Shown here in pieces: positions 4,407-27,730 of a DNA stretch of 27,730 bases; positions within the stretch are counted from its first letter, which is position 1; each line of letters begins with the position of its first letter. The stretch lies in NCBI GenBank assembly GCA_964492865.1, contig CAZBLX010000001.1, forward strand, positions 1-27,730, given 5' to 3'. This stretch comes from an uncultured Planctomycetia bacterium (lineage in GTDB: Bacteria; Omnitrophota; Gorgyraeia; Duberdicusellales; 4484-171). The translations under genes were made by a program, and so were the position numbers. Below the pieces are notes generated by a model. That model worked only from the letters and a program-made list of their open reading frames with translations. It was not told the origin of the DNA and searched no databases.

Positions 4407-4499
4407 TTATCTTAAGGAAGAAGGATCCATTGGTTAAATTTTCCCAATTTTTTGCAAACTGATAATTGTTTTAAAATTTAGTTTTTTCTATAGTTTGAA

Positions 4500-7400
4500 T
4501 TACCAAGGATTGTTTTGACGAACTGTTTCTTTCAACGATGTAATAACCTGTAATTTTTCTATTTCTCTTTTTTCTTCTGACTCAATGATTACTTCAAAAG
4601 TAGAACTTAAATCTCTGTTTGCTTCTCTTTCTCCTCCATCAAAAAGAGGTTTTATTCTTTCCTCAAAGTATTCTTTGTTATTATATTCATCAGCAAAAAA
4701 GTTAGCTATTTTTTCTTTGATAAGAAAAGTATAAATCTCTTTTGCAATCCAATTAAAATCTTCTTCTAATTTAGCATCAACTCTTGTGGAAAGAACTGCC
4801 TCTGTTCCTGAAAATCTTACCAGTGTCCATCCTTTATCTTTAAAGAATATCTTTATTCCATCTATATCTGAATAACCAAAACTTCTTTCTCTGGCAAATT
4901 CAATCAACATCTTTTTAACTTCCTTCTTTATAATCTTCAGATTACCTTTGTATTTAGATAATAAGAATTCATGATAAGGAGGTCTTATATCAGGGCTGAA
5001 ATGCCATGAAGGTAATTTATTGATAAGCTTTTCTGTATTCCAATTTACCTCTTTTAAAGCCAAAAGTAAAAGTAAGCTTGCCTGAATTGAATCATCAAAA
5101 AATCCATTTCTTCCAAACCAAGAAGGATACATATGAGCTGATGCTTCAGCACCAAATACAGCACCTGTCTCTCTCATCTTCTTTTTTATATTGGCATGCC
5201 CTGTTTTAAATGTTACAGGAATTCCTCCCAATTCTTCAATCTTTTTAATAATACAGTCACTCATCTTTACATCCACTACTATCTTTGCTTTGGGGAATTC
5301 TTTCAATATTCTTTCTACAAATGTGCCCAAAATATGTTCTCCCTGAAAATCAAATCTTCTCTTTTTAATTTGAGCTACAGCACCAATTCTATCTCCATCT
5401 CCATCAATCCCTATTGCTATATGAGCATCTACCTCTTTTAGTTTCTCGTAAGCCTGATCCATATTCTTCTTTACCGTGGGGTCAGGAAGGTGAGCAGGAA
5501 ATCTTCCGTCAGGTTTCATATTTATTCCTACAACTTCTGCTCCTAATCTTTCTAAAACTTCTTTTAGAGCCTGGCCTGCTGTTCCATTTGCTGGATCAAT
5601 TACTACCTTTAAACCTTTAAGAGGTAAACCTTGCTTTTTAATCTTTTCTTCAACAAATTCATCTGAACTATCAACTAACTCTTTATATGAATATTTCCTC
5701 TGCAAACTTAACCATTCACTTGCTCCTTTTGCCCAACAGGAAGCAATCACCATATTTACATACTTCTTTAATATTTTTTCTGAATTTTCTCTAATTAAAT
5801 TGGCTTTTCTTTTAAATCCTACAAATTCTTGAGTATCTAAGCTCTTTTTGGCATATTCGGAAATCTTTTTTATCTCCTCAGTTGTAGGATTTCTCTGGCC
5901 CAATTTATCCTTTATCACTACTTTAAATCCATTCTCTCGAGGAGGATTATGAGAGGCAGTAACCATTATTCCTAAATCGGAATCAAAATAAAGAGTAGCG
6001 AAGTAAAGGATAGGGGTGGTAACTAAACCTATATCAATCACATCTATACCTAAATTTAACAAATTCTCTATTATTCTTTTTGCAATCCTTTCTGAAGAAA
6101 ACCGTGCATCTTTTCCTACAACACAGAGTAATTTATCTTTCTTATAAAACTCTTTCTGGGACTTAATCAAACCTTTTACCCAGGCATCTATAACTTCAAG
6201 AGTAAGGTATTTTTCTGCATCAGGAGCTCGCCAATCATAACTACGCGTAATAAAATCTATTCTCTCCTTATTTGTATAATCTCTTCCTCCATCTACCTCT
6301 TGTTTTTCTTGAGGAAAAACTATTCTGACAAAAGAATCTAAATTATCAAATGCTGAATATTTTTCTTTCTCAATTTCCAAAAATTCAAAAGTTAAATCTC
6401 TCAAAATAGAAAACCATCTCTTTAAATCATCAGCACAAAAAATTTCTCCCTTCCATTCACAACAAATATATTTATGATACAAACCTTCCTCTTCAACAAC
6501 ACCTCCTATATAAGAAGATATTTCTTCTTCTAAAGTAGAGAGATTTAAAATTAAAGAAAGTGTTTCTATCCAAGCTTCTGGAAAGAAAAAAGAAAAATAC
6601 TCTTCAGCTTTTTTTAAAGTTTTTCCTGTCTGAGAAGTGGCATCAATTATTAAAATTCTTAAAGGATTATTTAAGGAATTTTTTAATAAAGCAATTTCTT
6701 TTTTTATCTTCTCCAGATTCTTTTTATCTTCATTTATAAGATGAATTTCAGGAGCAAGAATTTGAGCCTGAGGTATATTTAAAAACTTAGACAAAATCTC
6801 ATAAACTATAATTAAAGGCCAGGCTTCTGTTCCTATAAATACACAAAGTTGAGGGAAAAATTCATCTTCTTTTATCTTTCTCAGCGCTTGATACATATAA
6901 AAAGGAACTCTTTCTTTCTTAAGAGTGAATATTTCGCCTCCACCATATTCTCTTCCTATTTTTATCTCTATATAGAAATCTTCATCAGGAATTTTTATAA
7001 ATTCTTGCAGATTTCTTCCTCCATCTCTTCTTTCAAAATTATTTAAAAATCCTCTTAAAATCTCATCTATCTTTTCTCTCTTTACAATCCTCACTCTATT
7101 CTGCAAATCTGTAGGCAGAAGTCTTTTTTCTCCACAAAAAAAGCTATATTTTCCCACTTTTAACATAGAGATATCATTTTTACTATCCCCAAAAACTGCT
7201 ATTTCATCTTCAGGTATCTTGTAAAAATCTAAAAAGTCTTTTACTGCTTCCTTTTTAGAAACTAAAGAGATATCTATAGCTACACTGGAGTAGGTAATCT
7301 TGAATTTTCTAAGAGAGTCTATATTCCTCAATCTCTTTTTGACTAACTTCGCCAGTTCCTTCATTAAATATTTTTCCTCAAAAAATTTAACTGTTACCAT

Positions 7401-10400
7401 AGAAATCTTAGGATAAGCTTTTATTATTAAGTTTTCTCCTCTCTTTACCAAGATTTCAGCCTCTTTTATTAACAAATTCCAATCTTCTCTTTTTATCTCT
7501 TCTAAACTTTCTCCAATCTCTTTTATAATCTTTTTTTTCTCTTCATAAGAACTAAATTTGCTATGCTTTATATCTACTTTTAAATTACCTTCTTCATCAA
7601 AATATCCCCAGACACTGCCCATCTCACTCAAAAAGAAAACTTTTTTCTTCCTGCGAATATCTTGAGGTAATCTTTCTCCTACCAACTCCTCCAAAGATTT
7701 AAGAGACTGTCCACTCACTATTACAAAAAATATGTCTTTCCTTACCAATTCTGATATTAACTCTATTTTCTTCTTTCCTAAAGGTATGGATGCTTTTTCT
7801 AAAGTATCATCATAATCAGTAAATATTGCTTTTATTCTGCCCCCATCTTTTAAAATCCTTTTTCTTCCTCTTCTTTCTGACTCAATATCTTTAACTACTT
7901 TCTCTAAAACTTCTTCTTTTATATCTGGTTCAATCTCTCTAATTATTTCAGGAAAATCTACTATCTCTCCTATCTCTTCATATTCTCTCTTCAGTCTTCT
8001 TGCTTCATTTCTTAATCTTCTGAAATATCTCTTTGCTATCTCATCTGCAGAAAATTTCAACCAGCTAACACTTAAATACGGTGAACCAATAACTACACCT
8101 TTTTTCTCTAATTTCTTTCTTTTCTCTTCTAAATCTGCAAATGTAATCCCATTTTCTGCGATAATCTTAATAAGTTTCCTCAATCGGGAAGTAGTCATCT
8201 TTATTTTAAATAAAGAAAATACTCTTAAAATGTCTTCTCGTTTGAGTTTTAAATGTTCATTTTCTTTTAAAAATTTCTCCAGAGGGTCTTCTGCCTTTAT
8301 CTTTTCTTCTATTTTCTGAATCAATTCTTCTATTTCTGAAGAATCAGAATACTTCCTTAATCTTTTTAACTTTCTTAATGCTCTTTTAAGCTTACCTTCT
8401 TTTATCCAGTTTTCTGCTTTTTTAAATTCTCTTCTTACCATCTCTTCTCTGTTTGCTTCCTCCAGAAAAACTTTTTTAGAACTTCTAAACATCTTTTTTT
8501 CTTGTGCTCTCTTTTCCTCAATTACCTTTATTTCTCTGCCCATTATCTTACTAATAATTTCCTCCCACGAAACTCCTCTTTTTTTCTTTATATCTAAAAG
8601 GGTTCTATATTCCTCAAGATACTGTCTTCTAAATCTTACTATGTCAAATACAGAAGAATCTCCTATAAATTCTTCTACTGCTTTTTTATATTTTGGCTTT
8701 TTTACTTCTTCTTTTATCTCTATCTCTTCCTCTTTTTTACCTACTATATCAGCAATAATTTTTTCTAAAGAAATTCCTTTCTTTCTTTCTATTCGTCGTA
8801 TAGTTCTGCATTCTTCAGGATATGACCTTCTAAACTCAGTAATATTAAATACATTTGAATCACCCATAAATTCTTTTACCGCTTTCTTATACTTCACCTC
8901 TTTTATTTTTTTCTCATACTCACATAAAGAATTCAGGGTAGGAAGAAATCCTTTCTCTATCCAGCTTGCTTCTAATCTATATCTTCTCAGTATACGACTG
9001 GTAACTTCACCTTTTTCCTGAGCTTTCTTTAAATCAGATAAACTTTTATAACCTAATATATTGGCTATAAAAAGCCAGGCTTTATATTGATTATGGATAT
9101 CCTTCCAATAGTTAGAAGAAATCTTTTTTAAACAGAACCAAGCAGCTTCTCTGAATACAGGGTTTTTCTTCACATAATTATGCGACTTATAAATTTCAAA
9201 AATCATTCCTTTAAATCGAGCAATTATTCCTCCCAGATGCATCTTATAAAATTCATCACGTCCAGGATAAAAGATATTCTTCTCGATCATCATATCTACC
9301 AACTTCTTTAAAGGAGTTTTCTTTCCTATTAAATCTAAAAATTCCCCAGGCAATGTTTTTCTTAGAAGCCATTCTAAAGCTTTCTCTTCTTTTTCTCTAT
9401 CCCAGCTTATATCTTTTATCACTAACCAGAATACTCTCTCCAGCAAAGGATAGTCTTTGTCAATCTCTGCTTCCTTTAGAATTTTTAAATAATCCAGTTC
9501 ATTCCTTTCTTGATAATAGTTTTTCAATCCAAAAAGACCAAAATTTACAAAACTTCTATAGCCAAAACATCTTAAATCATTTTCAATCAAATATCTTTCT
9601 GCTTCCTCTAAACTTATCCTTTTCTCTTTTAAGTTTTGAGAAAGCTTTATAAAATCCTTTGCTACTTTGCCAAATAACCATCTTATTGCTTTTTTGCGCA
9701 TCTTTATATTATCCCACTTTGTCTCTTTTAATAACCAAGGGGCTGTTTTCAAAACAGGATCCCATCTCTCAAGTTCAGTAACTTTTATAATCCATTCATA
9801 GTTCTTATCTCTTAAAAAAGAAAACTTTCTTTGTAATTCCCTAAAGGTTGGGTATCTTATCCTATTTGACAAGACAAAATTTTCCAAATCTTCATAATTT
9901 ATTTTTCCTTGATGATATTTTTCTATTTTTTCTTTATATTCTTGAGGCAATCTCTTTAAAATATATTCTTTAAGCTTAATTATTCTTTCTTCCTCTTTTC
10001 CTCCATCTTTAATAAATCCTTTCCCATTTCTATTTTTCTCCGCAAAAATCTTTAACAATCCTAATTTTTCTGTGACAGACTTAACATGAAGAAGCTGGGT
10101 GAGTTTAGGAATTCTATAGAAGAAAGAATTGGTGAATTTAAAATCTCTATCCTTAAATGAATTATTGAGCTCCTCATCAGACAAACCGTTATTATTCTTT
10201 CTATCCTTATTTTTATCAATCTTATTAAGCGAAATAGATAATTTCGTTTCTTTCCTCCCTCTGAAAGAAGAAAGTATGGCACTATTTCCATCTATGAAAC
10301 CTGAAATTCCCCCATCTTTTTTTTCCAACTCACGGGACACCAGAAACCTTATCCATGCATTATTAATTCTATTTTTAATCTCCTCAGGCTTATTAACATC

Positions 10401-22400: not shown

Positions 22401-25400
22401 TCCTTTTACTTTTATCTTTCTTAATTTAGCAAATTCTTTCTCTGCCAAGTTCCTGTTCAAAAATCCTTGAGGAAATTTCTTCCCTAAAAGTTTTAATGCT
22501 TCACGATATGGAGAAAATGTATGCCATAAATCCTCTTCTTTCTCTACTTTGGAAAGCAATTCTTCTTTTATTTTGGGGGGAATTTTACGTTGTCTTATTA
22601 AACGTTTCGCCTTATTATAATTATGCTCCTGGCACAATTTTCTTACTATTTTTTTGACCTCTTCTATTCTTAAATTCTGCAAAATCTCATCAAATAATTG
22701 AGGAAACTTTTTACGATACAAAGCTATAAATTTCTCCACCTCTTCTATCCTGCCCTGAGAAAGCAAAGCATAACATTTCTTTCTTATCTCATCCCTGCTT
22801 TCTTCTTGTCTCTTTCTAACCAGAGAAGTTTTTTCCCTAATAATAGATTTTCTCCTTGCCGAAAGATTATCTTTTTTCTTTATAACTTTTCTTGAAAGCA
22901 ATACTTTTCTTTTTTCTTCCCTTCTCTCTTTTACTTCTACTCCTTTTATCCCTCTTCGATATTTCTCAATTAATTCTTGTAACTCTTGGTTTCTTTTTAT
23001 CATCCCTCTAAGTTTACTTCTTCCTAAACCTAACAAATTAGCCGCTGCAGAAATATTGCCTCCTGTCTCCTCCAAAGCTTTTTTAACCCTTAAGTATAAC
23101 TCCTCTAAAGGAGGATATTTTCCTTTCTTTATCGCTAAAATTATCTCTTCCGCCTGCTTTGTCAGTATATATCCTTCCTTTTTATCTTTCTTTCTCAAAA
23201 ATCCTTTCTCCTCTAATTTTTTCAAATATTGAAAAATCAAATTCTCTCCTTTTCCTAAAAGCTGGGCTATACTGTCTTCGGCAACTCCCATATAATAAAG
23301 AATAAGTATCTTTAAAGCTAAAGAAGATAATTTTCTAAAACCAGCCTCTTCCAACTTCCTACAACCTTCCCATAAAGAATTTAATTCTTTAACAAATTCC
23401 TCCCAATATTTAAACCGTTTTCTTCTTAACCTAATCTCTTTATCATCTATCTTCATCCAATAAGTTACCCCTAAATCCCATGCTTTCTTTAAAGTAAGGG
23501 TACCATCATAAAGAGAGTTGATGAACTCCTCTCCTCTTTTTGTCAAGATTAACTTATTATTCCTTAATTCTATCAATCCCAATTTCTTCATTCTATGAGT
23601 ATGAGTTGTGGAACCAGGAGAGATTAAATCTCTTAAAGGAATACCTCTACTTTTTGCCCATAAAAACTTTACATCATTTTCGGTAACAAGAAGCTTTTCT
23701 TCCCACTTTTTAAATTTAGAAATTAGCCTTTTTGCATCTTCCTGAAAAGTTCTTCCTCTTCCTGTCAAAACAGAAATTAAATCCTCTACACTGGCTTGAT
23801 TTCTTAATACTTTTTCTAAAACTATCTCTAATTCTTCATTCAAATAATAATCGCCAAATTTTTCCTTCTGGAAAATTAGCCCTCTATTTAAAAGTTTTAA
23901 AAAGCGCTTCTCCACTATTTTCTTTCCTGATTTCTGGGTATATATACCAGTTATATCTGTAACTAAGGATGGTTTTCTTTTTCCTTTTTCTATACAGATA
24001 AGAATAGCTAAATCTTTCTCATCAAACTCCCTAGGTAACTTTGAAGAAAGTCCTTTCAATATTTTAATTTCCTTCTCCCTCAATCCTAATCCTAATCTTA
24101 GATTCTTCCAGCTGAATCCAATAAAACGAGGAGGAAGTCTCAAGCTTACCAATAATTCATTCACTTCCCATTTACTTTTAAGATAATTTTCTAAAATTCT
24201 TCTGACTGACTCCTTTAAAATGAATCTATCCTCCTTCTGAATAAGAAAATCAGTGTTTTTATCTATTTTTTCTAAAGCATCTTTTATTTCCCAACCAGCC
24301 AACTTTCCTTTCAGTAAATCTTTAAGCTCATCAAAACTTAAATTACCTTTTTCTGCTAAAGTAAGTAATACTAAGAAATCATTTTTGGTTAACAACATTC
24401 CTTTATAAAAAGGAAATCTTTCTATCTTTGCTATCTGCTCCTTTTTCCCTCCATCCTGAGTAATTATCTCTTTTGTTAAATCCTGCATAATTGCCTTTGC
24501 TACTTTCTGATTTATCCAAGGCTGACCTGTGGTAAAAATGGCTATCAAATCAGAAGTATTTAAAATTCGAAGAGTATATGGTTTAAGCTCCTCATAATTT
24601 CTCCATACATCTTTAAAAGAAAGCTTTCCTCCTCTATCTTTCTGGGTAAAAACATCTAAATCTAAGGAGGCTGCTTTGGGCAAATATTGACAAACCTTTA
24701 TTTCCTCTTTTAAACTAACTACTTTTTCAAAAGAAGCAGTTTCAAATCTTACTATCTCTTCAAATTCCTTCTGAAGCATCTTCAGTTTTTCAAATTTAAC
24801 AGGAGAAGTTATCCAGAAAATAGAAGAAGAAAAATAAAAAGAAGTCGCAGAAAGAAATTCTCCTACTCCATAACTAAGCAAATGTCTGATTTTTTCTTCT
24901 TTATTTTTTAACCAGAAATTAGATAAATACTTTACTGAAGGAAAAACCCAATCAGAATGCTGGTCTATATGGAAAAGAATGAAATCTTTTATCTCTTCCT
25001 CTAAAAGAAATACATTCAAAAGATTATGAACATCTGCCAAAAATACCTTTTTATCTCCCAACTCTATCAAAATATATCTGTCTTTACCTAATCTATAGTA
25101 ATTCTTTCCTACTTTTATCCTAAAAACTTTTTCTCCTAACTCTAAATTCTTTAAATCCTTATCTAAAAGAGGAAGTTTTCTTTGTTGAATAATCACCCTT
25201 CCTCCGTCTTTCTCTTTTATCTTTTGCTCAAGCAGTTTAAGTGCTTCTTGATAAACTTTTTTATTTATGTTCTCCTCTTTAAAACTTCTCCACAACTTAT
25301 ATCTTACCTCCTCCTCACCTAATATAAGAAAGGCTTTAGTTAAAAATTTAACTGGTTTGCTATAATCAGGAGAGGTATGCTGCATCTTTAATCTTTTCAC

Positions 25401-27730
25401 TAAACTTTTTGCGTCTTCTTTTAAAATCTCTGCTGCTTTTTTATTTATCTTTTCAGGAGAAGGTAGCTGAGAAAATTTTTCTTCTATTACCTTTAGTCCT
25501 TCTTCTAAACCAATATAAATATCAGAGTAAGGATATAATCTTTCTACTTTTGAAGGATGAAAATACTCTTCTAAAGTATAAAACCCTATATCTAAACAAA
25601 GCTCTCCGTGCTTTCTTCCCAACGCAGAAGGTAAATTCACAATTCTACTTTCTATCAAATCTAATCCTAAATTATTCACCCTTTCTTTTAAACAAGCAGG
25701 AAACTCTTCTCTCAACTCCATCTTTTCTAAAACATCCAACTCTCCTAACTTAATTACCTCCAAATCTAAATCTTCAATTATCTGAGAACTCCAGTCTATC
25801 TCCTGTGATGTTTTATAAAGATAGGTGGGACTGCCAGTTATAGCAATTGCGACTTTATATCCTTTCTCATTAAGCTTTAAAACAACATCAAATAAAATTT
25901 CCAATAAATTCTTTCTTCCCTGAGGAGTAATAATCTGCCAGGCTTGAGGGCTAAGATAACTTGGCATTTTATAGTTCTTCTCAAAGATACCCCCGTCTTT
26001 TTTCTGCTTACTAAAATTGACAGAAATATCTCTATTTAAAACACTCATTCCTTCCTCATCATTTAACTCTTTTCTTAAAATTTCTTTACCTTCAAATTCA
26101 ACATAATCTAATACTTTTTCTATTTCTTCTCTTATCCATTCATAAGGTATAGAAAAAATCTCTTTATTAATTCTTCCTTCTTCTATATCTTTCTTTATCG
26201 CTCTTCTGCTTAATCCATGAAAATCCCTTAATACCTCTATAAATTCTTTTAAAGTTACTCTCTTTAAAGGCTGATTATCTTTGGAACGGGAGGCAGTTAT
26301 ATCTCCAATCCTTTCTCCCTGAGGAGTGCTTAAAACATTTATCAACGACATATCATCACATAATACTCCTTTCTTGGTAACAGGATTAAAACTTTTTACA
26401 AAAATTCTAATATAAGGTTCCATTTTCCTTTGCACTACTTCTTTAACCCTTTCTTTAACTTCCTCATTCCATCTCTTGTAATTTTCGGTTACTCTTTTAA
26501 TTGCTTCTATTCCATCCTCTCCTTCTAAAAACTCTACTGCCATTACTGCTCTTAAGGAAATCTCATCATAATAAGGATCATCGTAGCGAGAAATTACCAT
26601 AAATACCTCACCAGGAGTAGCTACTGCTTCTCTATCTATCTTTTTAAGTTCAGCTAAAGCCTCAATTCTCTTTTTAAATACTTCCAAAATATTTTCTATA
26701 GAGTAACAGGCAGCAGGGTTGAATTCACTAATACTTACAAAAAGAGGATATTCTTTCTCTTGTGTTTTAAAAGTTACTTTATAACTTACATCTGGACGAT
26801 TATGCACAGCAAATTCTATTTTTACCTCCTCTATCTTTTCTGATCTTTCCACTTCAGGAAAAATCTTTACTAATACTTCTCCTAATAATCCTTTCTCTAT
26901 AAGAATCGAAATATCTTCCATATCTATATCAGGAACAAATACCCATCCTAATTTTTCCCGATGCTCTTTTATTACCTCTTCAGAAGGCATAATCTTTTCA
27001 ATCTTATCTTCTCCTATAGAGTATTCTTGAGAAATAGAACCAGAAACTGCCTTCTTGATTATCTCCTCAACATCTTTATCTCCCCCATCTTTTGTTTGCT
27101 TAGAGAACTTTTTCTTAAACTTACCTCTTGGTTGTTTTACATCTCTCCTATATATCAATCTTTTAACTCTACCATAGGTAACCTCTTTTCCAGCTTTAAT
27201 CAATTCTTGAATAATTAAATTTATTTCTTCCTCTGATACAGATCTTCCAAATATAAGCTTTGAATTCTGAGCCAATTTTTTTGAATCTATGATGGTAGCC
27301 TTAAAGTGTTGTAAGGCGTTTTCAACTAACCACTTATCTGATCTTTCCTCCCAATTTTTAGCTCTCTTTATCACCTTAAAACAATATCCATCAGATATCT
27401 CTACTCCAAATTTTTCTCTTACCACTCTTTTTACCTGTAAAATAGAAACTATCTTTTTCTTGTAGCTATTAGGATATCCTTTAGCCAAGAAGAAGATATC
27501 ACTTGAAGGTAAATTTAATCCTTTCTTTTCAGCATAGACTTTAATTTCTGGATATAGGTCTATTATCTTTCTGTAGCTTTTAGGATAAATCTTAGCTAAA
27601 CAGAAGATATTGCTTTGAGATAAACTTAATCCCTTCTTCTCAACATAGGCCTTAATTTCTGGATATAGGTCTATTATTCTCCTGTAGCTTTTGGGATAAC
27701 TCTTAGCTAAATAGAAAATATCACTGGGAG
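4500..27730 (-). CDS. Giant multi-domain protein, 5'-truncated by the window (>7,742 aa)
   Basis: Stop TAA at 4500-4502. The ORF track gives 7,662 aa from a TTG at 27488, but manual translation of 27489-27728 shows no stop and continuing tandem repeats, so the real start is outside the window. Several recognisable enzyme motifs are in frame. Confidence 0.93.
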   Translation of the reverse strand, partial: PSDIFYLAKSYPKSYRRIIDLYPEIKAYVEKKGLSLSQSNIFCLAKIYPKSYRKIIDLYPEIKVYAEKKGLNLPSSDIFFLAKGYPNSYKKKIVSILQVKRVVREKFGVEISDGYCFKVIKRAKNWEERSDKWLVENALQHFKATIIDSKKLAQNSKLIFGRSVSEEEINLIIQELIKAGKEVTYGRVKRLIYRRDVKQPRGKFKKKFSKQTKDGGDKDVEEIIKKAVSGSISQEYSIGEDKIEKIMPSEEVIKEHREKLGWVFVPDIDMEDISILIEKGLLGEVLVKIFPEVERSEKIEEVKIEFAVHNRPDVSYKVTFKTQEKEYPLFVSISEFNPAACYSIENILEVFKKRIEALAELKKIDREAVATPGEVFMVISRYDDPYYDEISLRAVMAVEFLEGEDGIEAIKRVTENYKRWNEEVKERVKEVVQRKMEPYIRIFVKSFNPVTKKGVLCDDMSLINVLSTPQGERIGDITASRSKDNQPLKRVTLKEFIEVLRDFHGLSRRAIKKDIEEGRINKEIFSIPYEWIREEIEKVLDYVEFEGKEILRKELNDEEGMSVLNRDISVNFSKQKKDGGIFEKNYKMPSYLSPQAWQIITPQGRKNLLEILFDVVLKLNEKGYKVAIAITGSPTYLYKTSQEIDWSSQIIEDLDLEVIKLGELDVLEKMELREEFPACLKERVNNLGLDLIESRIVNLPSALGRKHGELCLDIGFYTLEEYFHPSKVERLYPYSDIYIGLEEGLKVIEEKFSQLPSPEKINKKAAEILKEDAKSLVKRLKMQHTSPDYSKPVKFLTKAFLILGEEEVRYKLWRSFKEENINKKVYQEALKLLEQKIKEKDGGRVIIQQRKLPLLDKDLKNLELGEKVFRIKVGKNYYRLGKDRYILIELGDKKVFLADVHNLLNVFLLEEEIKDFILFHIDQHSDWVFPSVKYLSNFWLKNKEEKIRHLLSYGVGEFLSATSFYFSSSIFWITSPVKFEKLKMLQKEFEEIVRFETASFEKVVSLKEEIKVCQYLPKAASLDLDVFTQKDRGGKLSFKDVWRNYEELKPYTLRILNTSDLIAIFTTGQPWINQKVAKAIMQDLTKEIITQDGGKKEQIAKIERFPFYKGMLLTKNDFLVLLTLAEKGNLSFDELKDLLKGKLAGWEIKDALEKIDKNTDFLIQKEDRFILKESVRRILENYLKSKWEVNELLVSLRLPPRFIGFSWKNLRLGLGLREKEIKILKGLSSKLPREFDEKDLAILICIEKGKRKPSLVTDITGIYTQKSGKKIVEKRFLKLLNRGLIFQKEKFGDYYLNEELEIVLEKVLRNQASVEDLISVLTGRGRTFQEDAKRLISKFKKWEEKLLVTENDVKFLWAKSRGIPLRDLISPGSTTHTHRMKKLGLIELRNNKLILTKRGEEFINSLYDGTLTLKKAWDLGVTYWMKIDDKEIRLRRKRFKYWEEFVKELNSLWEGCRKLEEAGFRKLSSLALKILILYYMGVAEDSIAQLLGKGENLIFQYLKKLEEKGFLRKKDKKEGYILTKQAEEIILAIKKGKYPPLEELYLRVKKALEETGGNISAAANLLGLGRSKLRGMIKRNQELQELIEKYRRGIKGVEVKERREEKRKVLLSRKVIKKKDNLSARRKSIIREKTSLVRKRQEESRDEIRKKCYALLSQGRIEEVEKFIALYRKKFPQLFDEILQNLRIEEVKKIVRKLCQEHNYNKAKRLIRQRKIPPKIKEELLSKVEKEEDLWHTFSPYREALKLLGKKFPQGFLNRNLAEKEFAKLRKIKVKGLIPSFEWMVRQKILIPVSSGRYLWNEKIKEWIRETEDFKVEKQDDEKIKHLENEDEKISPEQFYEDFFSSSRFEEYLKKKRKKDDGEKYLDGGRDREERRKEFFKKVEELERERLTHYSKSTLFIIYLISEGITSWGEIRKEVKEVLGGKRENIYLSLWRLIKKGIVERKEKYLFTLTEEGKKLLRKILEGQFQKEKRIFEKRLEEKIIEKKGKITLIAKDLKVSRTRVRNAILKNPQLKKLWESFKRKKRIEKITLEFESLNKGVKKEDILLIDALKLPCVRKEILTQSKWIIIKNLFLGKRGELIFAGRIWAELGREFRYKNANVLLYEGKPIEVLLSQKRIIFAQIWKEDNLIGVFYQKLSKETLKKLSQGKLLLKRFWVGKTGTIRFAGKKVKRAALANREIEVEIFNQEGEVEFISAHLPQGEILSLQKGKRFFTRKKGKSRQKSRREKKIERKTKACIERDKGFYKKKTEKERLRQKERGRKINTRIEKILRRLFGEKDIICEELLDRREVKILYDLEKIGVVKMIREKVKSRKVLEWLKFLGDEERKQVYLNLWYLYGDVSWQDIKQIIKEKGFSHYRRRIEKEISRRPFIYFHKWRRINSDGGIPLTTYPKRLKDFDDWFRKRFSPQKGAFADLGIGMAWDRKTGLPTPFTTVEFAEKFPQLKVYGVDKVIPYLVAYLVVKKGDYIVLKDENKNLIGFLKISVLKDSFSLLEVIENREELAELIFFDEKETESDSFEEKKIIFKPYEVVKKEKGLNNLEFIKADLRDLDKNWEKEKVDWARIFNVLMHYSHKQAYKILSSISGIVKEGGLIFEGAGLNTLIFSQYRVKKKRLIMEELWLRKDFPKWAIFFHLKDLPTFLRNEEGGELLSILFRIYIDYLSKEGKWEDFVKEKLLEKNYKVIDGEYTSWIGIRWKNKELTLLDEIEESSQDRKNDGGEQSKLTFSLKGLSQIHEETKNKKRDVISEIKEYQLEKIKELRVEGISDENIAELLMTSPLKDERGRLARAILTEIYLKRARDVDRVLRKLEREGVRKERIEEIRERLMEIRRLIIRIRERLKQKWVLKKRLEVSDDEIRKKIRELIESGKEITFNTVVDSILTDALVERIEDGIEDETVRNFLSDLVRETPGIFIDKESVNFVKRHLELLIPILRIDGFVDHWTDSRLEFYSPMGFTDRVKELIYRLIILGVNSNKKNYQEKAVELFFKFGDVIERKDRNRIEENVRERFKERDEGISEHLIMLIFANRFGIEKVREALESKNVEFRQAINEFMSGLKCTEKLMELLDAFDALLMLGEDIIWNILKNQGSEFYRIISAIKDITPEFINIVKNNPEDVRTAFSNSDYSLWWLSELLNSIKKLPNFVDIINGIKLTRVYKLHIIFRCPIEEIKEDLKSFLDGIKYLREFDDEDIEKSLRYPYGFVGTIQLFGRYPEFVRVIQLFRKRSDLVEFNKKLRMEAICASLDGDPKYMKYIREIVQNIQKDLQEEDFIKILDSILREAGKEEIDFAFYISSRYSVEGINFFDILYILCLGKIARYIGLAGLRVLRDWLRFREARKMLVKAPGTFINGMKYIEEVSDKEEITSAISRTFTGFVLMTQTVGVNPNFINFIKIFGLLNASEFFENYMREPAFFDISKLDKYENIDTSTLSLEDLKYILLWELDDKFLKYMGLLSFKNILKGVPTRKLYKDIVIPEIEKFNADLNLMDEETRKRRNDAIVQLIRVLAIIESNEDIANYVLERDKKTGEYLFARAIKRLISEGIEIDRIVTSIIKYGDIWDRFTADDKTFEIIGKNIDKFSWIVPVVRYLKDSKRERELEVLDKLIREEIKPVNNESIWSLNRVEFPVYLMDYLEYGEEATNLGYIHGQLTPYRVDKIREALRIGDKKTIEKALEKGIWGKTLVEIAKQEKSIDDVLKERKRVEEENDAIKAEFEEWLNSDRVPKEVSEVLERIKEMSEDGWEIGITSGTARNMLLVFLGKLDRYEDHDFDNVLRKIDIPLKEFADRFKDEEFKNTLLEIKEERITIPSILDDLEDKIKRFEPEALEELYRRRREKINEYLGKYLPLDIIERNIEEIEKVIRKISNSMKIGDIRGETSAISRSDLGINAIQIFYNSINKRFEVYDPDNSIVYAKNGIVKIYSGIDSIFDPERPHPFSAVEYSVAEIVLADAIRFVRAKALGELKLDEEDSLIYSKALRQSFGIGLELPEFLRDSILKKLSTNLNKLVTDVAERGNWNIEDTIKLVRTIAPYMNLSDLRIKLRAIIEKNLDDLPPVCKKYPDVEEIFTINKIYNFLQSRNYGREVLKNFLENGEVPDDIALHGISLTKAKTIRISAGENLPIIINLLGILEDKALKSGSMVREKYKTEVSVVQAYGEGVYIGRNLENPLKFAEEGGALAIINTKELLNDFRNLDITDNSGDGKTNLVIHDREWNPIEIPLKYIEKIYVKPELYRYSRIYWQRAISNLSKEKSIPYEKAEQELSERTFGRGRRFSDVVECIYLGSFKIAADKVDGGRKLFKSELLKILQNTPFNFSRKSSKLRDNQILNYLFNIGRHGKQTITYLSVKKIRRKVHKMFCVIIEVIKGKGNKILEKSEQEIREKELKLSELERKRLFLLNNLGNDGGRKRNFEFNSLYSVIKGLFNSAKNCLNYLDQRMIEIFPPDRRGVKTILGMLIAGLSPLCILISLPHELLHALFNTLTFPDYVLDKVRCPSWLDPGGVITRYLPFVERESIPDFSVRYVRLEQPILPFALPKQLGLILNNFVPNIYNATLGFWLVRRGKRTDNYWIVGIGMLQVIYVASLAFCTAFKLINYGDFKAGVYALLNLTGYTGDLPLWIMAPLGLESGIVVLLISYLLSLHIDNFGSKIRGRIQKAKRITRKENISQDLFTADEIKNSQDRKNDGGLFDKESNISFKNSFVYFCLKCGKSFMNVYRNLYFFTQKLNFFFKEINFRINPSKVSFKLISYTFNLLIQSLKLFFKFTSYVLNLLIQSFNFSRKSSKLRDNQILNYLFNIGRHGKQTITYLYNSVKENIFAFIITDWLRFSRKERSKFLTSYSFKRLLLIYLKNFFLRAPPLKLTTFLKNLLAKIISFSSFFPSFVHSLKQVFLFLRKIIFIVFTKFLFCRLFFKNVRKPSIKIHQPASLSNINQIKWLRHKEGSVAIINVRGDNEEHAEIVEEILKKSLFELGSIRVRTICASEKEYVDSLNEALLIIKDYVEKSGKRVIVVITAGHSNPDPQKWESVHRIIKELYRKGVIIIAAANNEYAYGRISYPAAFKEVLAVSREINKEKIIYEEKDAHILYFDNRYGEVEFKGEKRVGNSFLAPRVAISVAYMLEENPELSFEQIRERFRGNNYDGGKGVEENCLNFSKDTFNIIPNDLDEFVEIYRKYFGEEEREILLREIGKLKKLKIEDIDTELYRRQLHSIEEILEKKPLPLKILFLISLLKTKNLNIFTYHIAESRLLHFIEFYPNCISKSVIFTLRDFLEEYPLGKYRDVIAMMLSSIVKSSVSPLDRKALEVLEEAAEKVSSSHYIFNLYKGVLKSFGEKKKHDNKEALKSFKTMFIREEIEKSLSERDFKKIVFIVPPVSWLGGSGDIPFILNTIKMLRKIYSEKEIKVILHNRDDFISALRMSSISEALKSNLIKEIKKATFIDKKTFSTEDVEFIWLNAKDTWQYMKEEILKPSAVSLIIVYRPASIDLNEQIISPFISKLEKEAPVIELYEFGIEGSSYFEERSSNSILSWGFGQKCVGVAPVDEEFMKKVDSLPKGAKKIKERKKELLEKLLPSLEDKELDKLTKSKWGVIYSFAYFSMYEIYFSALEKARESSREFKDEDLTIFVFRVGKGGFDEYETFKNLVEKGNYNVYEVPWETIFGIKISPKTTGHKISVISIPTTLEKERFDELFSLCELPIVVRGPNTLSNAIYLSAKRGVIWFMEFQPWQKKAKNDFFKFVRDCNSLEEEDKSFIKRLYEISRDSFAELFINPRYTKVWRCLSKELLDVNKPEEIKNRINNAWIRFLVSRELEKKDGGISGFIDGNSAILSSFRGRKETKLSISLNKIDKNKDRKNNNGLSDEELNNSFKDRDFKFTNSFFYRIPKLTQLLHVKSVTEKLGLLKIFAEKNRNGKGFIKDGGKEEERIIKLKEYILKRLPQEYKEKIEKYHQGKINYEDLENFVLSNRIRYPTFRELQRKFSFLRDKNYEWIIKVTELERWDPVLKTAPWLLKETKWDNIKMRKKAIRWLFGKVAKDFIKLSQNLKEKRISLEEAERYLIENDLRCFGYRSFVNFGLFGLKNYYQERNELDYLKILKEAEIDKDYPLLERVFWLVIKDISWDREKEEKALEWLLRKTLPGEFLDLIGKKTPLKKLVDMMIEKNIFYPGRDEFYKMHLGGIIARFKGMIFEIYKSHNYVKKNPVFREAAWFCLKKISSNYWKDIHNQYKAWLFIANILGYKSLSDLKKAQEKGEVTSRILRRYRLEASWIEKGFLPTLNSLCEYEKKIKEVKYKKAVKEFMGDSNVFNITEFRRSYPEECRTIRRIERKKGISLEKIIADIVGKKEEEIEIKEEVKKPKYKKAVEEFIGDSSVFDIVRFRRQYLEEYRTLLDIKKKRGVSWEEIISKIMGREIKVIEEKRAQEKKMFRSSKKVFLEEANREEMVRREFKKAENWIKEGKLKRALRKLKRLRKYSDSSEIEELIQKIEEKIKAEDPLEKFLKENEHLKLKREDILRVFSLFKIKMTTSRLRKLIKIIAENGITFADLEEKRKKLEKKGVVIGSPYLSVSWLKFSADEIAKRYFRRLRNEARRLKREYEEIGEIVDFPEIIREIEPDIKEEVLEKVVKDIESERRGRKRILKDGGRIKAIFTDYDDTLEKASIPLGKKKIELISELVRKDIFFVIVSGQSLKSLEELVGERLPQDIRRKKKVFFLSEMGSVWGYFDEEGNLKVDIKHSKFSSYEEKKKIIKEIGESLEEIKREDWNLLIKEAEILVKRGENLIIKAYPKISMVTVKFFEEKYLMKELAKLVKKRLRNIDSLRKFKITYSSVAIDISLVSKKEAVKDFLDFYKIPEDEIAVFGDSKNDISMLKVGKYSFFCGEKRLLPTDLQNRVRIVKREKIDEILRGFLNNFERRDGGRNLQEFIKIPDEDFYIEIKIGREYGGGEIFTLKKERVPFYMYQALRKIKEDEFFPQLCVFIGTEAWPLIIVYEILSKFLNIPQAQILAPEIHLINEDKKNLEKIKKEIALLKNSLNNPLRILIIDATSQTGKTLKKAEEYFSFFFPEAWIETLSLILNLSTLEEEISSYIGGVVEEEGLYHKYICCEWKGEIFCADDLKRWFSILRDLTFEFLEIEKEKYSAFDNLDSFVRIVFPQEKQEVDGGRDYTNKERIDFITRSYDWRAPDAEKYLTLEVIDAWVKGLIKSQKEFYKKDKLLCVVGKDARFSSERIAKRIIENLLNLGIDVIDIGLVTTPILYFATLYFDSDLGIMVTASHNPPRENGFKVVIKDKLGQRNPTTEEIKKISEYAKKSLDTQEFVGFKRKANLIRENSEKILKKYVNMVIASCWAKGASEWLSLQRKYSYKELVDSSDEFVEEKIKKQGLPLKGLKVVIDPANGTAGQALKEVLERLGAEVVGINMKPDGRFPAHLPDPTVKKNMDQAYEKLKEVDAHIAIGIDGDGDRIGAVAQIKKRRFDFQGEHILGTFVERILKEFPKAKIVVDVKMSDCIIKKIEELGGIPVTFKTGHANIKKKMRETGAVFGAEASAHMYPSWFGRNGFFDDSIQASLLLLLALKEVNWNTEKLINKLPSWHFSPDIRPPYHEFLLSKYKGNLKIIKKEVKKMLIEFARERSFGYSDIDGIKIFFKDKGWTLVRFSGTEAVLSTRVDAKLEEDFNWIAKEIYTFLIKEKIANFFADEYNNKEYFEERIKPLFDGGEREANRDLSSTFEVIIESEEKREIEKLQVITSLKETVRQNNPW
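4700..6270 (-). other. Domain of giant protein: alpha-D-phosphohexomutase (PMM/PGM family)
   Basis: VVGKDARFSS, catalytic phosphoserine loop GIMVTASHNP (about 5944-5970), metal loop DGDGDR (about 5389-5406), sugar loop GAEASAH and LVRFSGTE. All four motifs are intact. Confidence 0.9.
6480..6900 (-). other. Domain of giant protein: type I phosphoribosyltransferase-like
   Basis: LRILIIDATSQTGKTL (about 6615-6660) resembles the PRPP-binding loop, with the second acidic residue replaced by Ala. Confidence 0.55.
7060..7838 (-). other. Domain of giant protein: HAD-superfamily hydrolase, subfamily IIB (Cof-like)
   Basis: Motif I IFTDYDDTL, motif II IVSGQS, motif III SKKEAV and motif IV FGDSKNDISML. 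Confidence 0.88.
8540..8893 (-). repeat. Tandem 67-aa (201-bp) duplication within the giant protein
   Basis: KYKKAVKEFMGDSNVFNITEFRRSYPEE... versus KYKKAVEEFIGDSSVFDIVRFRRQYLEE..., with anchors at 8881 and 8680. Confidence 0.9.
9060..9980 (-). repeat. About three degenerate repeats of roughly 100 aa with conserved Trp
   Basis: PWLLKETKWD..KKAIRWL, FWLVIKDISWD..EKALEWL and AWFCLKKISSNYW..YKAWLF. Anchor Trp codons at 9735, 9426 and 9138. Confidence 0.65.
10066..10205 (+). pseudogene. Degenerate, internally deleted copy of the nested antisense coiled-coil cassette
   Basis: 10066-10083 matches 13300-13317 at 15/18. 10153-10205 matches 13651-13703 at 41/53, ungapped. An in-register mini-ORF at 10086-10160 reads MKKLGEFRNSIEERIGEFKISILK. 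Confidence 0.6.
10560..11670 (-). other. Domain of giant protein: GT-B glycosyltransferase resembling EarP (EF-P rhamnosyltransferase) family
   Basis: Ordered motifs GSGDIPFIL..ML, LYEFG, WGFG..VG, ERFDELFSLCELPIVVRGPNTLSNA and IWFMEFQPW parallel the recalled EarP motifs GDIGV, EYL, PGF..GG, YD.LL..CD.NFVRGEDSF.RA and W.IYPQ. Confidence 0.6.
12345..12925 (-). other. Domain of giant protein: subtilase (S8)-like, catalytic Asp apparently replaced by Asn
   Basis: VAIINV (Asp position), EEHAEIV (His), IIAAANN (oxyanion Asn), SYPAA..VLAV and GNSFLAPRVA (Ser motif, compare GTSMAAPHVA). Confidence 0.75.
13306..13334 (+). promoter_or_regulatory. Near-consensus sigma70 promoter, antisense within the giant gene
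   Basis: TTGACA (13306-13311), 17-bp spacer, TATAGT (13329-13334) with extended -10 TG at 13326-13327. The ATG follows at 13344. Confidence 0.8.
13344..13646 (+). CDS. Small coiled-coil protein (100 aa), nested antisense in the giant ORF
   Basis: E/K/R/I-rich helical protein with an 18-aa internal repeat (KRLDEKVENVRSEFEEKF / KRLDEKIESIRNEFEANF). It has its own promoter, no SD (probably leaderless), and casts a typical S/L/F-rich shadow ORF (13370-13603, minus). Confidence 0.7.
   Translation: MPANVKQIIQDLIIPEFRTLSAEIKRLDEKVENVRSEFEEKFKRLDEKIESIRNEFEANFRRIDSEIDLLKEEIKFLREEIKISINIHERLAALEAKINK
13815..14400 (-). other. Domain of giant protein: membrane-embedded HExxH metallopeptidase-like (M50B/DUF3267-like)
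   Basis: LISLPHELLHALF (HELLH at 14316-14330) in a hydrophobic helix, followed by further hydrophobic segments and a candidate third ligand in GYTGDL. Confidence 0.55.
14698..14828 (+). pseudogene. Truncated duplicate of the antisense cassette (5' part), with a 6-bp deletion in the promoter spacer
   Basis: 14705-14806 is identical to 13319-13420 (102/102). TTGACA at 14698-14703 is 11 bp from TATAGT at 14715-14720. ORF 14730-14828 encodes MPANVKQIIQDLIIPEFRTLSAEIKRSVLEYF. Confidence 0.8.
15050..15450 (-). other. Domain of giant protein: ADP-ribosyltransferase-fold (H-Y-type)-like
   Basis: IALHGIS, then GILEDKALKSG, then YGEGVYIG..PLKFA, then LVIHD..IPLKYIEKIYV. This order matches the HG / G.GvY / final-strand pattern of PARP/KptA-like ARTs. 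Confidence 0.55.
15830..16515 (-). other. Domain of giant protein: CCA-adding/poly(A) polymerase head-like nucleotidyltransferase
   Basis: IGITSGTARNMLL..DHDFD (compare VGGAVRD.LL..DiD), SRSDLGINAI (compare RRDFTINA), YDPD and ADAIRFVR..GELKLDEE (compare lRalRF..gf.id). Confidence 0.65.
19900..20500 (-). other. Domain of giant protein: class I SAM-dependent methyltransferase
   Basis: FADLGIG (motif I), VYGVD, LEFIKADL, IFNVLMHY and IVKEGGLIFEG. Confidence 0.72.
21690..24400 (-). other. Region of giant protein: array of winged-helix and Fis-type HTH domains
   Basis: At least five wHTH-like units ending in L.k.Gli.......y.LT..G-type wings, plus Fis-like ALEETGGNISAAANLLGLGRSKL (about 22995-23085) and KGKITLIAKDLKVSRTRV (about 21715-21770). 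Confidence 0.7.
24470..25100 (-). other. Domain of giant protein: UPF0489/arginase-deacetylase-fold-like
   Basis: ADVHN, FHIDQHSDW, SLDLDVF and IAIFTTGQPW, in the order typical of the HxDxHxD / xDxDxF metal-binding fold. Confidence 0.6.
25540..25900 (-). other. Domain of giant protein: Pol-beta superfamily nucleotidyltransferase-like
   Basis: IAITGS...EDLDLEV, followed by a third-acid strand LCLDIGF. Confidence 0.5.
26290..26850 (-). other. Domain of giant protein: possible protein-kinase-like (APH/RIO-type) fold
   Basis: VATPGEV, VMAVEFLEG, LCDDMSLINVL and RIGDI resemble the hinge, catalytic loop (D....N) and metal-binding Asp. The usual His before the Asp is absent. Confidence 0.4.
27450..27730 (-). 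repeat. Tandem 37-aa (111-bp) repeats in the giant ORF, at least 2.5 units, running off the window
   Basis: SDIFYLAKSYPKSYRRIIDLYPEIKAYVEKKGLSLSQ / SNIFCLAKIYPKSYRKIIDLYPEIKVYAEKKGLNLPS / SDIFFLAKGYPNSYKKK. DNA anchors at 27703, 27592 and 27481. Confidence 0.92.

Follow-up and report, generated by a model that had tools for sequence, protein, structure and literature searches.

Giant multi-enzyme proteins of Omnitrophota are the closest described counterparts of the protein considered here; their class 1, with phosphoglucomutase (PGM), HAD and methyltransferase content, is described in a 2026 preprint (bioRxiv 10.64898/2026.06.07.730766). Cleavage of Omnitrophota giants was suspected from their C39 and subtilisin domains, and because the cleavage points are unknown, splitting the proteins for structure prediction was prevented (West-Roberts et al, 2023; bioRxiv 10.1101/2023.11.21.568195). 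C39 domains recur in other giant Omnitrophota proteins (both preprints). The stretch of DNA analysed here (the window; 27,730 nucleotides from an uncultured Planctomycetia bacterium, contig CAZBLX010000001.1) encodes a giant multi-enzyme protein of the kind described for Omnitrophota, in one ORF (open reading frame) of 7,662 aa (window 4500..27488, minus strand), in which the tripeptide Asp-Gly-Gly (DGG) occurs 17 times. The strict tripeptide at the junctions between its units, and the replacement of DGG by SSS in a homologue, are not described for the published giants: neither preprint mentions DGG or a linker, the 2026 survey mentions neither a motif nor cleavage, and a literature search returned nothing on cleavage sites in these giant proteins. 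DGG may be a recognition site for polyprotein processing, a reading to which we assign a probability of roughly 0.45.

Like the class 1 giants, the window protein is encoded by one very long ORF with many enzyme families (PGM/phosphomannomutase (PMM), HAD, methyltransferase), membrane helices and peptidase domains, and it runs over thousands of residues with no dominant repeat; unlike them, it stays under the 10 kAA cut-off of the survey, which counts 5,761 proteins of at least that length (bioRxiv 10.64898/2026.06.07.730766). Its closest database relatives are annotated as proteins from Omnitrophota metagenome-assembled genomes (MAGs), and near-identical ones are deposited under Candidatus Omnitrophica bacterium 4484_70.1 (P0002, 92%) and Thermodesulfobacteriota bacterium (P0153, 99%). 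TTG is given as the start codon of the ORF, the first Met of which comes only at aa 167. Since the first DGG (aa 134) lies upstream of this Met, that site hinges on an upstream start, and the true start is uncertain.

In viral polyproteins, Gly-Gly-X sites are cut by adenain, by pS273R of African swine fever virus and by coronavirus PLpro. The window gene resembles them in that one ORF contains mature-protein-sized units, a short conserved, Gly-Gly-containing and lineage-variable motif at their junctions, and internal peptidase-like units. Unlike them, it is cellular, with ribH, trpE and a gene for methyl-accepting chemotaxis (a chemoreceptor) next to it, it contains no clan CE or papain-like domain detectable with Pfam, and its cleavage is a proposal. 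MARTX toxins are likewise bacterial giants with short sites between modules that are shuffled among strains, and their effector modules are freed at inter-module Leu sites by a cysteine protease domain (CPD) of the toxin itself, but the window giant has no CPD domain, toxin repeats or secretion signal, and its modules are housekeeping-type enzymes and DNA-binding domains. Polymorphic toxins carry boundary motifs (VENN in CdiA, PxxxxDPxGL in Rhs) once per protein, before the C-terminal toxin. As with DGG, a short conserved peptide stands at the start of a variable module and coincides with module exchange between strains; in contrast, DGG recurs at every junction, and VENN and DPxGL are absent from the giant.

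C39 double-glycine leader processing (bacteriocin/PCAT) has in common with the window sites the Gly-Gly at the proposed cut site, but the latter are internal and repeated 17 times instead of marking a single N-terminal leader. No C39 domain (PF03412) was matched in the 18 units of the giant (Pfam, E ≤0.01), nor in six units that were rescanned more permissively (a trans-acting copy may lie outside the 27.7 kb visible), and the leader consensus LSxxELxxIxGG (hydrophobic residues at −4, −7 and −12) is absent upstream of the 17 DGGs. With neither domain nor leader consensus, the window feature does not fit the C39 double-glycine systems. Nor are the units ubiquitin-like Gly-Gly precursors: those that end in DGG are HAD, PGM, S8 and so forth, not β-grasp folds, and no JAMM or DUB family was detected in the ORF with Pfam.

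The DGG excess and its strictness

All 17 in-frame DGGs that an earlier note on this DNA had listed were recovered from the ORF translation, each at the low coordinate given there. Asp and Gly account for 5.1% of residues each, which yields 1.02 expected DGGs and bears out the note's estimate of about one by chance; a first-order Markov model predicts 2.6. The excess (Poisson P = 1.4e-15) makes DGG the most enriched tripeptide of the giant, nine orders of magnitude ahead of the runner-up EEI (P 2.6e-6), and 2000 shuffles of the giant contained 1.02 DGGs on average and 5 at most. GAYGGNGGN occurs out of frame only once on the coding strand of the gene (18013-18021), and seven genes next to the giant, 2,186 aa in all, contain no DGG. 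The DGG frequency, for which a match with the background had been named beforehand as the outcome that would undo the idea, is far above it.

Comparable tripeptide excesses arise when a domain is repeated, as was seen in a control set of 24 long ORFs from unrelated loci (for example, RLW 14 versus 0.09 expected; YIF 9 versus 0.06). Repeated domains are absent from the giant, and chunked all-versus-all blastp revealed only minor internal similarity of four kinds: a 34-aa element, one 52-aa tandem duplication, a weak helix-turn-helix (HTH) pair and similarities between junction flanks. Repeated domains were thus ruled out as the cause of the excess; DGG belongs to none, which sets the giant apart from tandem-repeat proteins.

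The codon counts of the earlier note are correct (Asp GAT 15 and GAC 2; first Gly GGA 11, GGG 4 and GGT 2); the second Gly is encoded by GGA 11, GGT 3, GGG 2 and GGC 1 times. This usage resembles that of the whole gene, irrespective of whether Gly (GGA 218, 56%; GGT 99, 25%; GGG 39, 10%; GGC 35, 9%) or Asp (GAT 346, GAC 44) is considered. The first and second codon positions are invariant across the 17 sites (102/102), whereas third positions carry next to no information (0.24 and 0.08 bits at the Gly wobble positions) and the flanks none. Because only the codon-determining bases are conserved and the wobble bases follow gene usage, selection acts on the tripeptide itself, as the note had proposed. 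Sites 1 and 2 share the flank FSKQxKDGG, in which Ser is encoded by TCT in site 1 and by AGT in site 2.

The motif is strict. The variants NGG, SGG, DGS, DGA, DAG and DSG do not occur in the giant, and EGG (three times) is at chance level and in less hydrophilic surroundings than DGG. A passive linker would tolerate such variants; the exactness of the motif therefore points to a recognition site. The charged setting that the note had described is also found: the 10 residues on either side are hydrophilic (Kyte-Doolittle −1.15 versus −0.44 ± 0.17 at random positions), and basic residues make up 27% of them, compared with 19% at random positions. Position-specific composition upstream of the 17 sites is restricted to weak preferences for K/N at −1 and K at −2.

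Units, boundaries and relatives

The 17 DGGs divide the ORF into 18 units of 43-1,572 aa, the lengths of which resemble the gene-length distribution. In order along the protein, the sites and the units discussed below are as follows.

27081..27089 (-): DGG 1, aa 134-136, context FSKQTK-DGG-DKD
25989..25997 (-): DGG 2, aa 498-500
25200..25208 (-): DGG 3, aa 761-763
24447..24455 (-): DGG 4, aa 1012-1014
22122..22130 (-): DGG 5, aa 1787-1789, ends a 775-aa HTH-rich unit
20568..20576 (-): DGG 6, aa 2305-2307
19578..20567 (-): SAM-methyltransferase-like unit (Pfam Methyltransf_25/31/11, all under curated cutoffs)
19569..19577 (-): DGG 7, aa 2638-2640, ends the methyltransferase unit; its flank SQDRKN-DGG is common to site 10
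14853..14861 (-): DGG 8, aa 4210-4212, ends a 1,572-aa unit without Pfam match
14523..14531 (-): DGG 9, aa 4320-4322, start of the membrane/HExxH unit
13692..14522 (-): membrane unit with three predicted membrane helices, HELLH inside the first
13683..13691 (-): DGG 10, aa 4600-4602, separates the membrane/HExxH and S8 units
12330..13682 (-): S8 (subtilase)-like unit, peptidase core at about aa 4853-5056 (Pfam Peptidase_S8 25.6 bits, cutoff 21.8)
12321..12329 (-): DGG 11, aa 5054-5056, at or inside the C-terminal edge of the S8-like fold
10308..10316 (-): DGG 12, aa 5725-5727
9999..10007 (-): DGG 13, aa 5828-5830, ends a 103-aa unit holding a decayed junction copy
7839..7847 (-): DGG 14, aa 6548-6550, directly before the HAD module; site of a 381-aa TPR indel in a close relative
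7026..7838 (-): HAD-IIB (Cof-type) phosphatase module, complete enzyme (Pfam Hydrolase_3 spans 5-234 of the 274-aa unit)
7017..7025 (-): DGG 15, aa 6822-6824, between the HAD and PRT-like units; kept in P0002
6285..6293 (-): DGG 16, aa 7066-7068, directly before PGM/PMM; TSSP of P0003 lies ≤3 residues from the aligned position
4641..6284 (-): phosphoglucomutase/phosphomannomutase module, complete enzyme (Pfam PGM_PMM_I-IV)
4632..4640 (-): DGG 17, aa 7617-7619, directly after PGM/PMM; opposite SSS 1449-1451 of P0003
4503..4631 (-): C-terminal tail past the last DGG, 43 aa

The modules that Pfam and NCBIfam recognise (PGM/PMM I-IV, HAD-IIB, S8-like, methyltransferase-like and HTH units) are mutually unrelated. 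Among the module names of the earlier note, PGM/PMM, HAD-IIB and S8-like were recovered in this way, whereas Pfam yielded no match for UPF0489, NTase or kinase-like. The HExxH motif is present, but only within a predicted membrane helix, and the PRT assignment corresponds to a PRPP-type motif recognisable by eye only; the methyltransferase and HTH units come in addition to the modules listed there.

Wherever a boundary can be measured, a complete enzyme starts 1-7 residues past DGG. Position 1 of the HAD-IIB profile TIGR01484 aligns at aa 6554, 3 residues past DGG 6548-6550. Positions 7-451 of the 456 in the PGM profile NF007088 cover aa 7076-7587, position 7 being 8 residues past DGG 7066-7068. 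The third case is a partial 931-aa protein from an Omnitrophota MAG (P0155), which has different modules and also an excess of DGG (4 versus 0.3 expected); there, DGG precedes a complete OMP-decarboxylase-type domain, as delimited by its profile, by 5-7 residues. With 17 sites in 7,662 residues, the chance of finding DGG ≤10 residues upstream of a given point is ∼2% per boundary. DGG does not separate each domain from the next: large units hold several (such as the HTH domains within one unit at aa 1015-1789, Pfam), so that protein-sized units are delimited. The expectation that DGGs lie outside folded domains was largely borne out, as 16 of the 17 show no sign of lying in a recognised domain, the exception being DGG 5054, which overlaps the C-terminal strands of the S8 fold in an alignment by eye.

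The close relative from Candidatus Omnitrophica bacterium 4484_70.1 (P0002/L083; 93-96% DNA identity to the window) keeps all three shared DGGs but contains an additional TPR module (1,143 nt, 381 aa; Pfam TPR_2), inserted exactly at DGG 6548. The inserted segment is framed by DGG on either side (...RILK-DGG-[EESKIL...KDMKF-DGG]-KIKAIFTDYDDT), and its edges at the DNA level are GATGGGGGC and GATGGCGGC. What is gained or lost therefore comprises a module together with a single motif. The notion of DGG as a candidate shuffling signal gains support from this whole module, which one of two close relatives has and the other lacks, DGG included, exactly at a DGG.

Two further differences from this relative were observed. 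A 76-codon segment of the window (8722-8948, aa 6181-6256) is absent from L083 and has no DGG at its edges; in the window, it forms a diverged tandem duplication (aa 6199-6250 versus 6266-6317, 60% identity). In L083 (∼5200-5310), the PGM module is not continuous: past domain II comes a frameshift or stop, the gene call ends at 5210 and homology continues in another frame, which reflects either a sequencing error or a decaying module.

More distant relatives carry a different motif. The 3,530-aa protein P0003, which was found by a full HMMER search (word-indexed protein search being weak for a Lys/Glu-rich query), shares just the PGM module with the window (70% identity) and contains a single DGG; SSS, however, occurs 20 times versus 1.2 expected (P 4.6e-18), at 17 sites that take the forms SSS, SSSS, TSSP and TSST. 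TCN and AGY codons for Ser are mixed inside single sites, so there is no common DNA motif. The blastp homology between the window and P0003 stops exactly at DGG 7617-7619, opposite SSS 1449-1451; on the N-terminal side of PGM, TSSP 896-899 of P0003 is found ≤3 residues from the position of DGG 7066-7068. Ser runs flank the PGM and HATPase_c Pfam domains of P0003, and none falls inside. The Ser motif likewise adjoins PGM or methyltransferase modules in P0004, P0009 and P0154, and P0154 also mixes TCN and AGY codons without a shared DNA motif. The expectation of a conserved boundary motif in homologues therefore holds in that the boundary is marked, but the mark in the more distant homologue is SSS and not DGG. 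In one Omnitrophota protein with a PGM module (P0001, 3,350 aa), neither DGG nor SSS is in excess, which means that a junction motif is not universal in such proteins. DGG is thus a lineage-specific junction motif of Omnitrophota-type multi-enzyme giants, the place of which SSS takes in a related lineage.

In P0001, an RMA/RMT string recurs (GVRMAKP, SARMTLS, QARMTNV and the C-terminal TTRMAA); the excess of RMA is weak (3 versus 0.24 expected), and the string may mark junctions in yet another lineage or be left over from start codons that were fused. The end of P0154 overlaps by 75 nt with a 1,185-aa ORF in another frame (L246 3532-3607); both are probably one longer gene, interrupted by a frameshift or a sequencing error.

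Processing and the alternatives

If DGG is a processing site, a dedicated endopeptidase would recognise the tripeptide and cut the precursor into separate enzymes and regulators, with motif and protease co-evolving within a lineage. The most plausible position of the cut would be after Gly-Gly, which would leave native-like N-termini 1-7 residues before the enzyme cores. Cof-type phosphatases usually start with M-x-IKxIxxDxDGT; a cut before the HAD module would leave R-IKAIFTDYDDT, matching the start of the free-standing enzymes. The protease could be the S8-like or the membrane HExxH unit in the middle of the protein, or could be encoded elsewhere in the genome. That the same ORF contains two peptidase-like units, the S8-like one (above the Pfam cutoff) and the membrane HExxH one, counts for processing. 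A specific reader can be inferred from the fact that a passive spacer needs no exact sequence, and the finding that junctions which align have SSS in place of DGG implies a lineage-specific one. With one motif per unit, whole units could be gained or lost without harm to their neighbours, and one such event is seen in the close relative. The claim that DGG marks boundaries under selection at the peptide level, and may be a signal for processing or shuffling, is supported by the codon pattern, the enzyme starts just past the motif and the module indel. The lability of Asp-Gly bonds, invoked earlier for autoproteolysis, receives no support from the SSS lineage.

Several observations weigh against processing. 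To our knowledge, cleavage at DGG or SSS is documented for none of the known peptidase families, and C39 (double-glycine) peptidases, clan CE peptidases and JAMM had no Pfam match in the ORF. The S8-like unit may be an inactive or atypical subtilase, possibly without the catalytic Asp: in an alignment by eye, it reads VAIINVRGD (window 12840-12941, aa ∼4850-4880), with Asn where subtilases (V-x-V-I-D-S/T-G) have the catalytic Asp, although candidates for Ser (GNSFLAP) and His (NEEHAEIV) are both there. DGG 5054-5056 seems to belong to this fold, as a QhpE-type profile is at position 211 of 219 by aa 5052 and the alignment with subtilisin stops at aa 5050 (subtilisin 251 of 274), beyond which YDGGKGVEEN resembles YYGKGLINV by eye. 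The motif would then lie inside the last strands (the C-terminal GxG), and a cut there would clip the domain. The membrane/HExxH unit, a possible membrane metallopeptidase, has no Pfam family match and is known from its motif only, its AlphaFold2 model (no alignment) being unusable (pLDDT 41.8). The cross-motif comparison rests on a single orthologous module, PGM, and the motif of the SSS lineage is looser and its sites are at times clustered 10-30 residues apart, which recalls a linker rich in Ser more than it does a protease site.

The last point leads to the main rival of processing, an uncleaved hinge. DGG and SSS would then be turn-forming spacers that insulate modules within one membrane-anchored chain, and the motif a lineage habit under purifying selection. 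In its favour, loops and turns are typically formed by Asp, Gly and Ser, the surroundings of DGG are hydrophilic and charged, membrane helices are predicted in the ORF (aa 4364-4558) and no cognate protease was identified; the 2026 preprint (bioRxiv 10.64898/2026.06.07.730766) regards such proteins as membrane-anchored multi-enzyme assemblies. However, a hinge has no need of an exact tripeptide, yet NGG, SGG, DGS and DGA are absent from the junctions, and the first two positions of every codon are fixed while the wobble is free. Conserved module sequence moreover abuts the motif on both sides, and three residues are short for a flexible tether. We consider the hinge possible but less likely than processing; the loose, linker-like Ser sites and the published view of these giants count for it.

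A strict, lineage-specific motif implies a co-evolving reader, which is not necessarily a protease: a modifying enzyme, a chaperone or an assembly partner might read the tripeptide as a docking or modification signal without any cleavage. A candidate for such a reader was not found, no known modification targets both DGG and SSS, and a protease is the more economical assumption, since the ORF itself holds peptidase units; we regard this alternative as improbable.

Signals in nucleic acid instead of protein are more doubtful still. At the DNA level, the 9-nt GAYGGNGGN could serve as microhomology for illegitimate recombination or cassette exchange, with the peptide as a by-product, and it is true that GATGGGGGC and GATGGCGGC bound the 1,143-nt indel between the window and L083 and that three junctions have longer shared flanks, suggesting copied junction sequences. 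But the free bases are exactly the wobble positions, the motif is never above chance out of frame, the FSKQxKDGG pair differs in Ser codon family, and the SSS sites of the sister lineage have no DNA motif in common, all of which leaves a recombination signal very improbable. The mixing of TCN and AGY codons in P0003 ruled out a reverse-complement motif, which had come into consideration because GATGGAGGA read backwards gives TCC-TCC-ATC (Ser-Ser-Ile), similar to SSSI in P0003.

At the RNA level, GGAGG within GAT-GGA-GGA resembles a Shine-Dalgarno sequence (GGAGG in 11 of the 17 sites, GGGGG in 4), so that DGG could be the fossil of an operon junction (TGA-T-GGAGG) or a site of internal initiation or pausing; in the HAD unit, ATA-AAA-GCA, four bases past the motif, resembles a former ATG start. 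In-frame ATG, GTG or TTG within 30 nt downstream is found in only 3 of the 17 sites, though, and T directly before GAT in only 6; the invariant Asp codon is outside the Shine-Dalgarno sequence, the middle base follows gene-wide Gly usage, and the SSS lineage has no such RNA motif. From the scarcity of downstream start codons and the counts at −1, the Shine-Dalgarno fossil and internal initiation were rejected, and a translation signal has, like the DNA signal, very little probability left. Chance or composition is negligible as an explanation: strong tripeptide excesses do arise in long ORFs with repeated domains (RLW, YIF), but the giant has none, its 17 DGGs (P 1.4e-15) compare with a shuffle maximum of 5, and DGG is also enriched among the unrelated modules of P0155.

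Recognition of DGG for processing is part of a broader and more tentative proposition, which we hold possible but would not favour: that the giant ORFs are true bacterial polyproteins, that a co-evolving protease cuts a lineage-specific three-residue code, and that modules are gained and lost as motif-bounded cassettes. If so, an operon's worth of enzymes and regulators would be made as one chain, a virus-style expression applied to housekeeping-type enzymes; a protease as the reader would mean a polyprotein expression strategy in a cellular organism. Irrespective of whether they are cut or hinged, the DGG/SSS junctions are the first concrete candidates for where this happens in such giants. 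One chain versus cut pieces is an open question for the known Omnitrophota giants, and the strict tripeptide gives coordinates for it. DGG also offers a principled way of splitting giants into units for annotation and structure prediction, and a marker of module gain and loss.

Further observations on the locus

No Rfam match was found, a PDB sequence search with the first 4,212 aa of the giant returned no matches, and PADLOC gave weak HTH-type matches only. An exact DNA probe had no match among public genome contigs, and PGM-profile scans of public genome and metagenome contigs yielded only ordinary PGMs of ≤34% identity among the matches listed. The neighbouring TrpE is at most 48-53% identical to its counterparts in GTDB genomes, including Thermovibrio and Omnitrophota MAGs.

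A decayed junction is recognisable at ∼10182-10190 (aa ∼5768), where KDRKN-NNG-LSDEELNNSFK corresponds to SQDRKN-DGG-LFDKESNISFK of site 10 and DGG has become NNG. Together with the flank shared by sites 7 and 10, this copy suggests that junction sequences may sometimes have been copied along with their flanks.

The giant ORF also contains a perfect direct repeat of 102 nt with sharp edges (13319-13420 and 14705-14806), the copies of which lie 1,386 nt (462 codons) from each other on either side of the membrane/HExxH unit, with two DGG sites in between. As the same layout is present in the independently assembled P0153 (99% identical), it was not created by the window's assembly alone. The element with this repeat (13305-13583 and 14706-14804) recurs, in the same frame in all cases, in P0154 (aa 841-926) and P0155 (aa 158-268) with 46-70% protein identity, and is the sole part of the region that the window has in common with the otherwise unrelated giants P0154 (SSS-type) and P0155 (DGG-type); it could be an element that was inserted repeatedly, or a site of recombination.

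Antisense to the giant lies a codon-aligned ORF of 103 aa (window 13335-13646, plus strand) whose translation looks like a natural coiled coil; it contains an 18-aa tandem unit (13414-13521) and has no TTA among its 10 Leu codons. The translation of the giant opposite to it (∼aa 4603-4840) is an odd stretch rich in Phe, Leu, Asn and Ser, and both GC and AT skew of the window flatten at 13-15 kb. Chance alone would give ∼0.6 such antisense frames in a gene of this length, so that dual coding is not proven.

At the stop of the giant (window 4497-4530), a 1-nt indel separates the window (...NNPW*) from its relative P0005 (...NNPLVIQTIEKAKF). The longer ending is also encoded in the window in a shifted frame, as ...EKTKF followed by TAA, the two ends being ≤11 codons apart.

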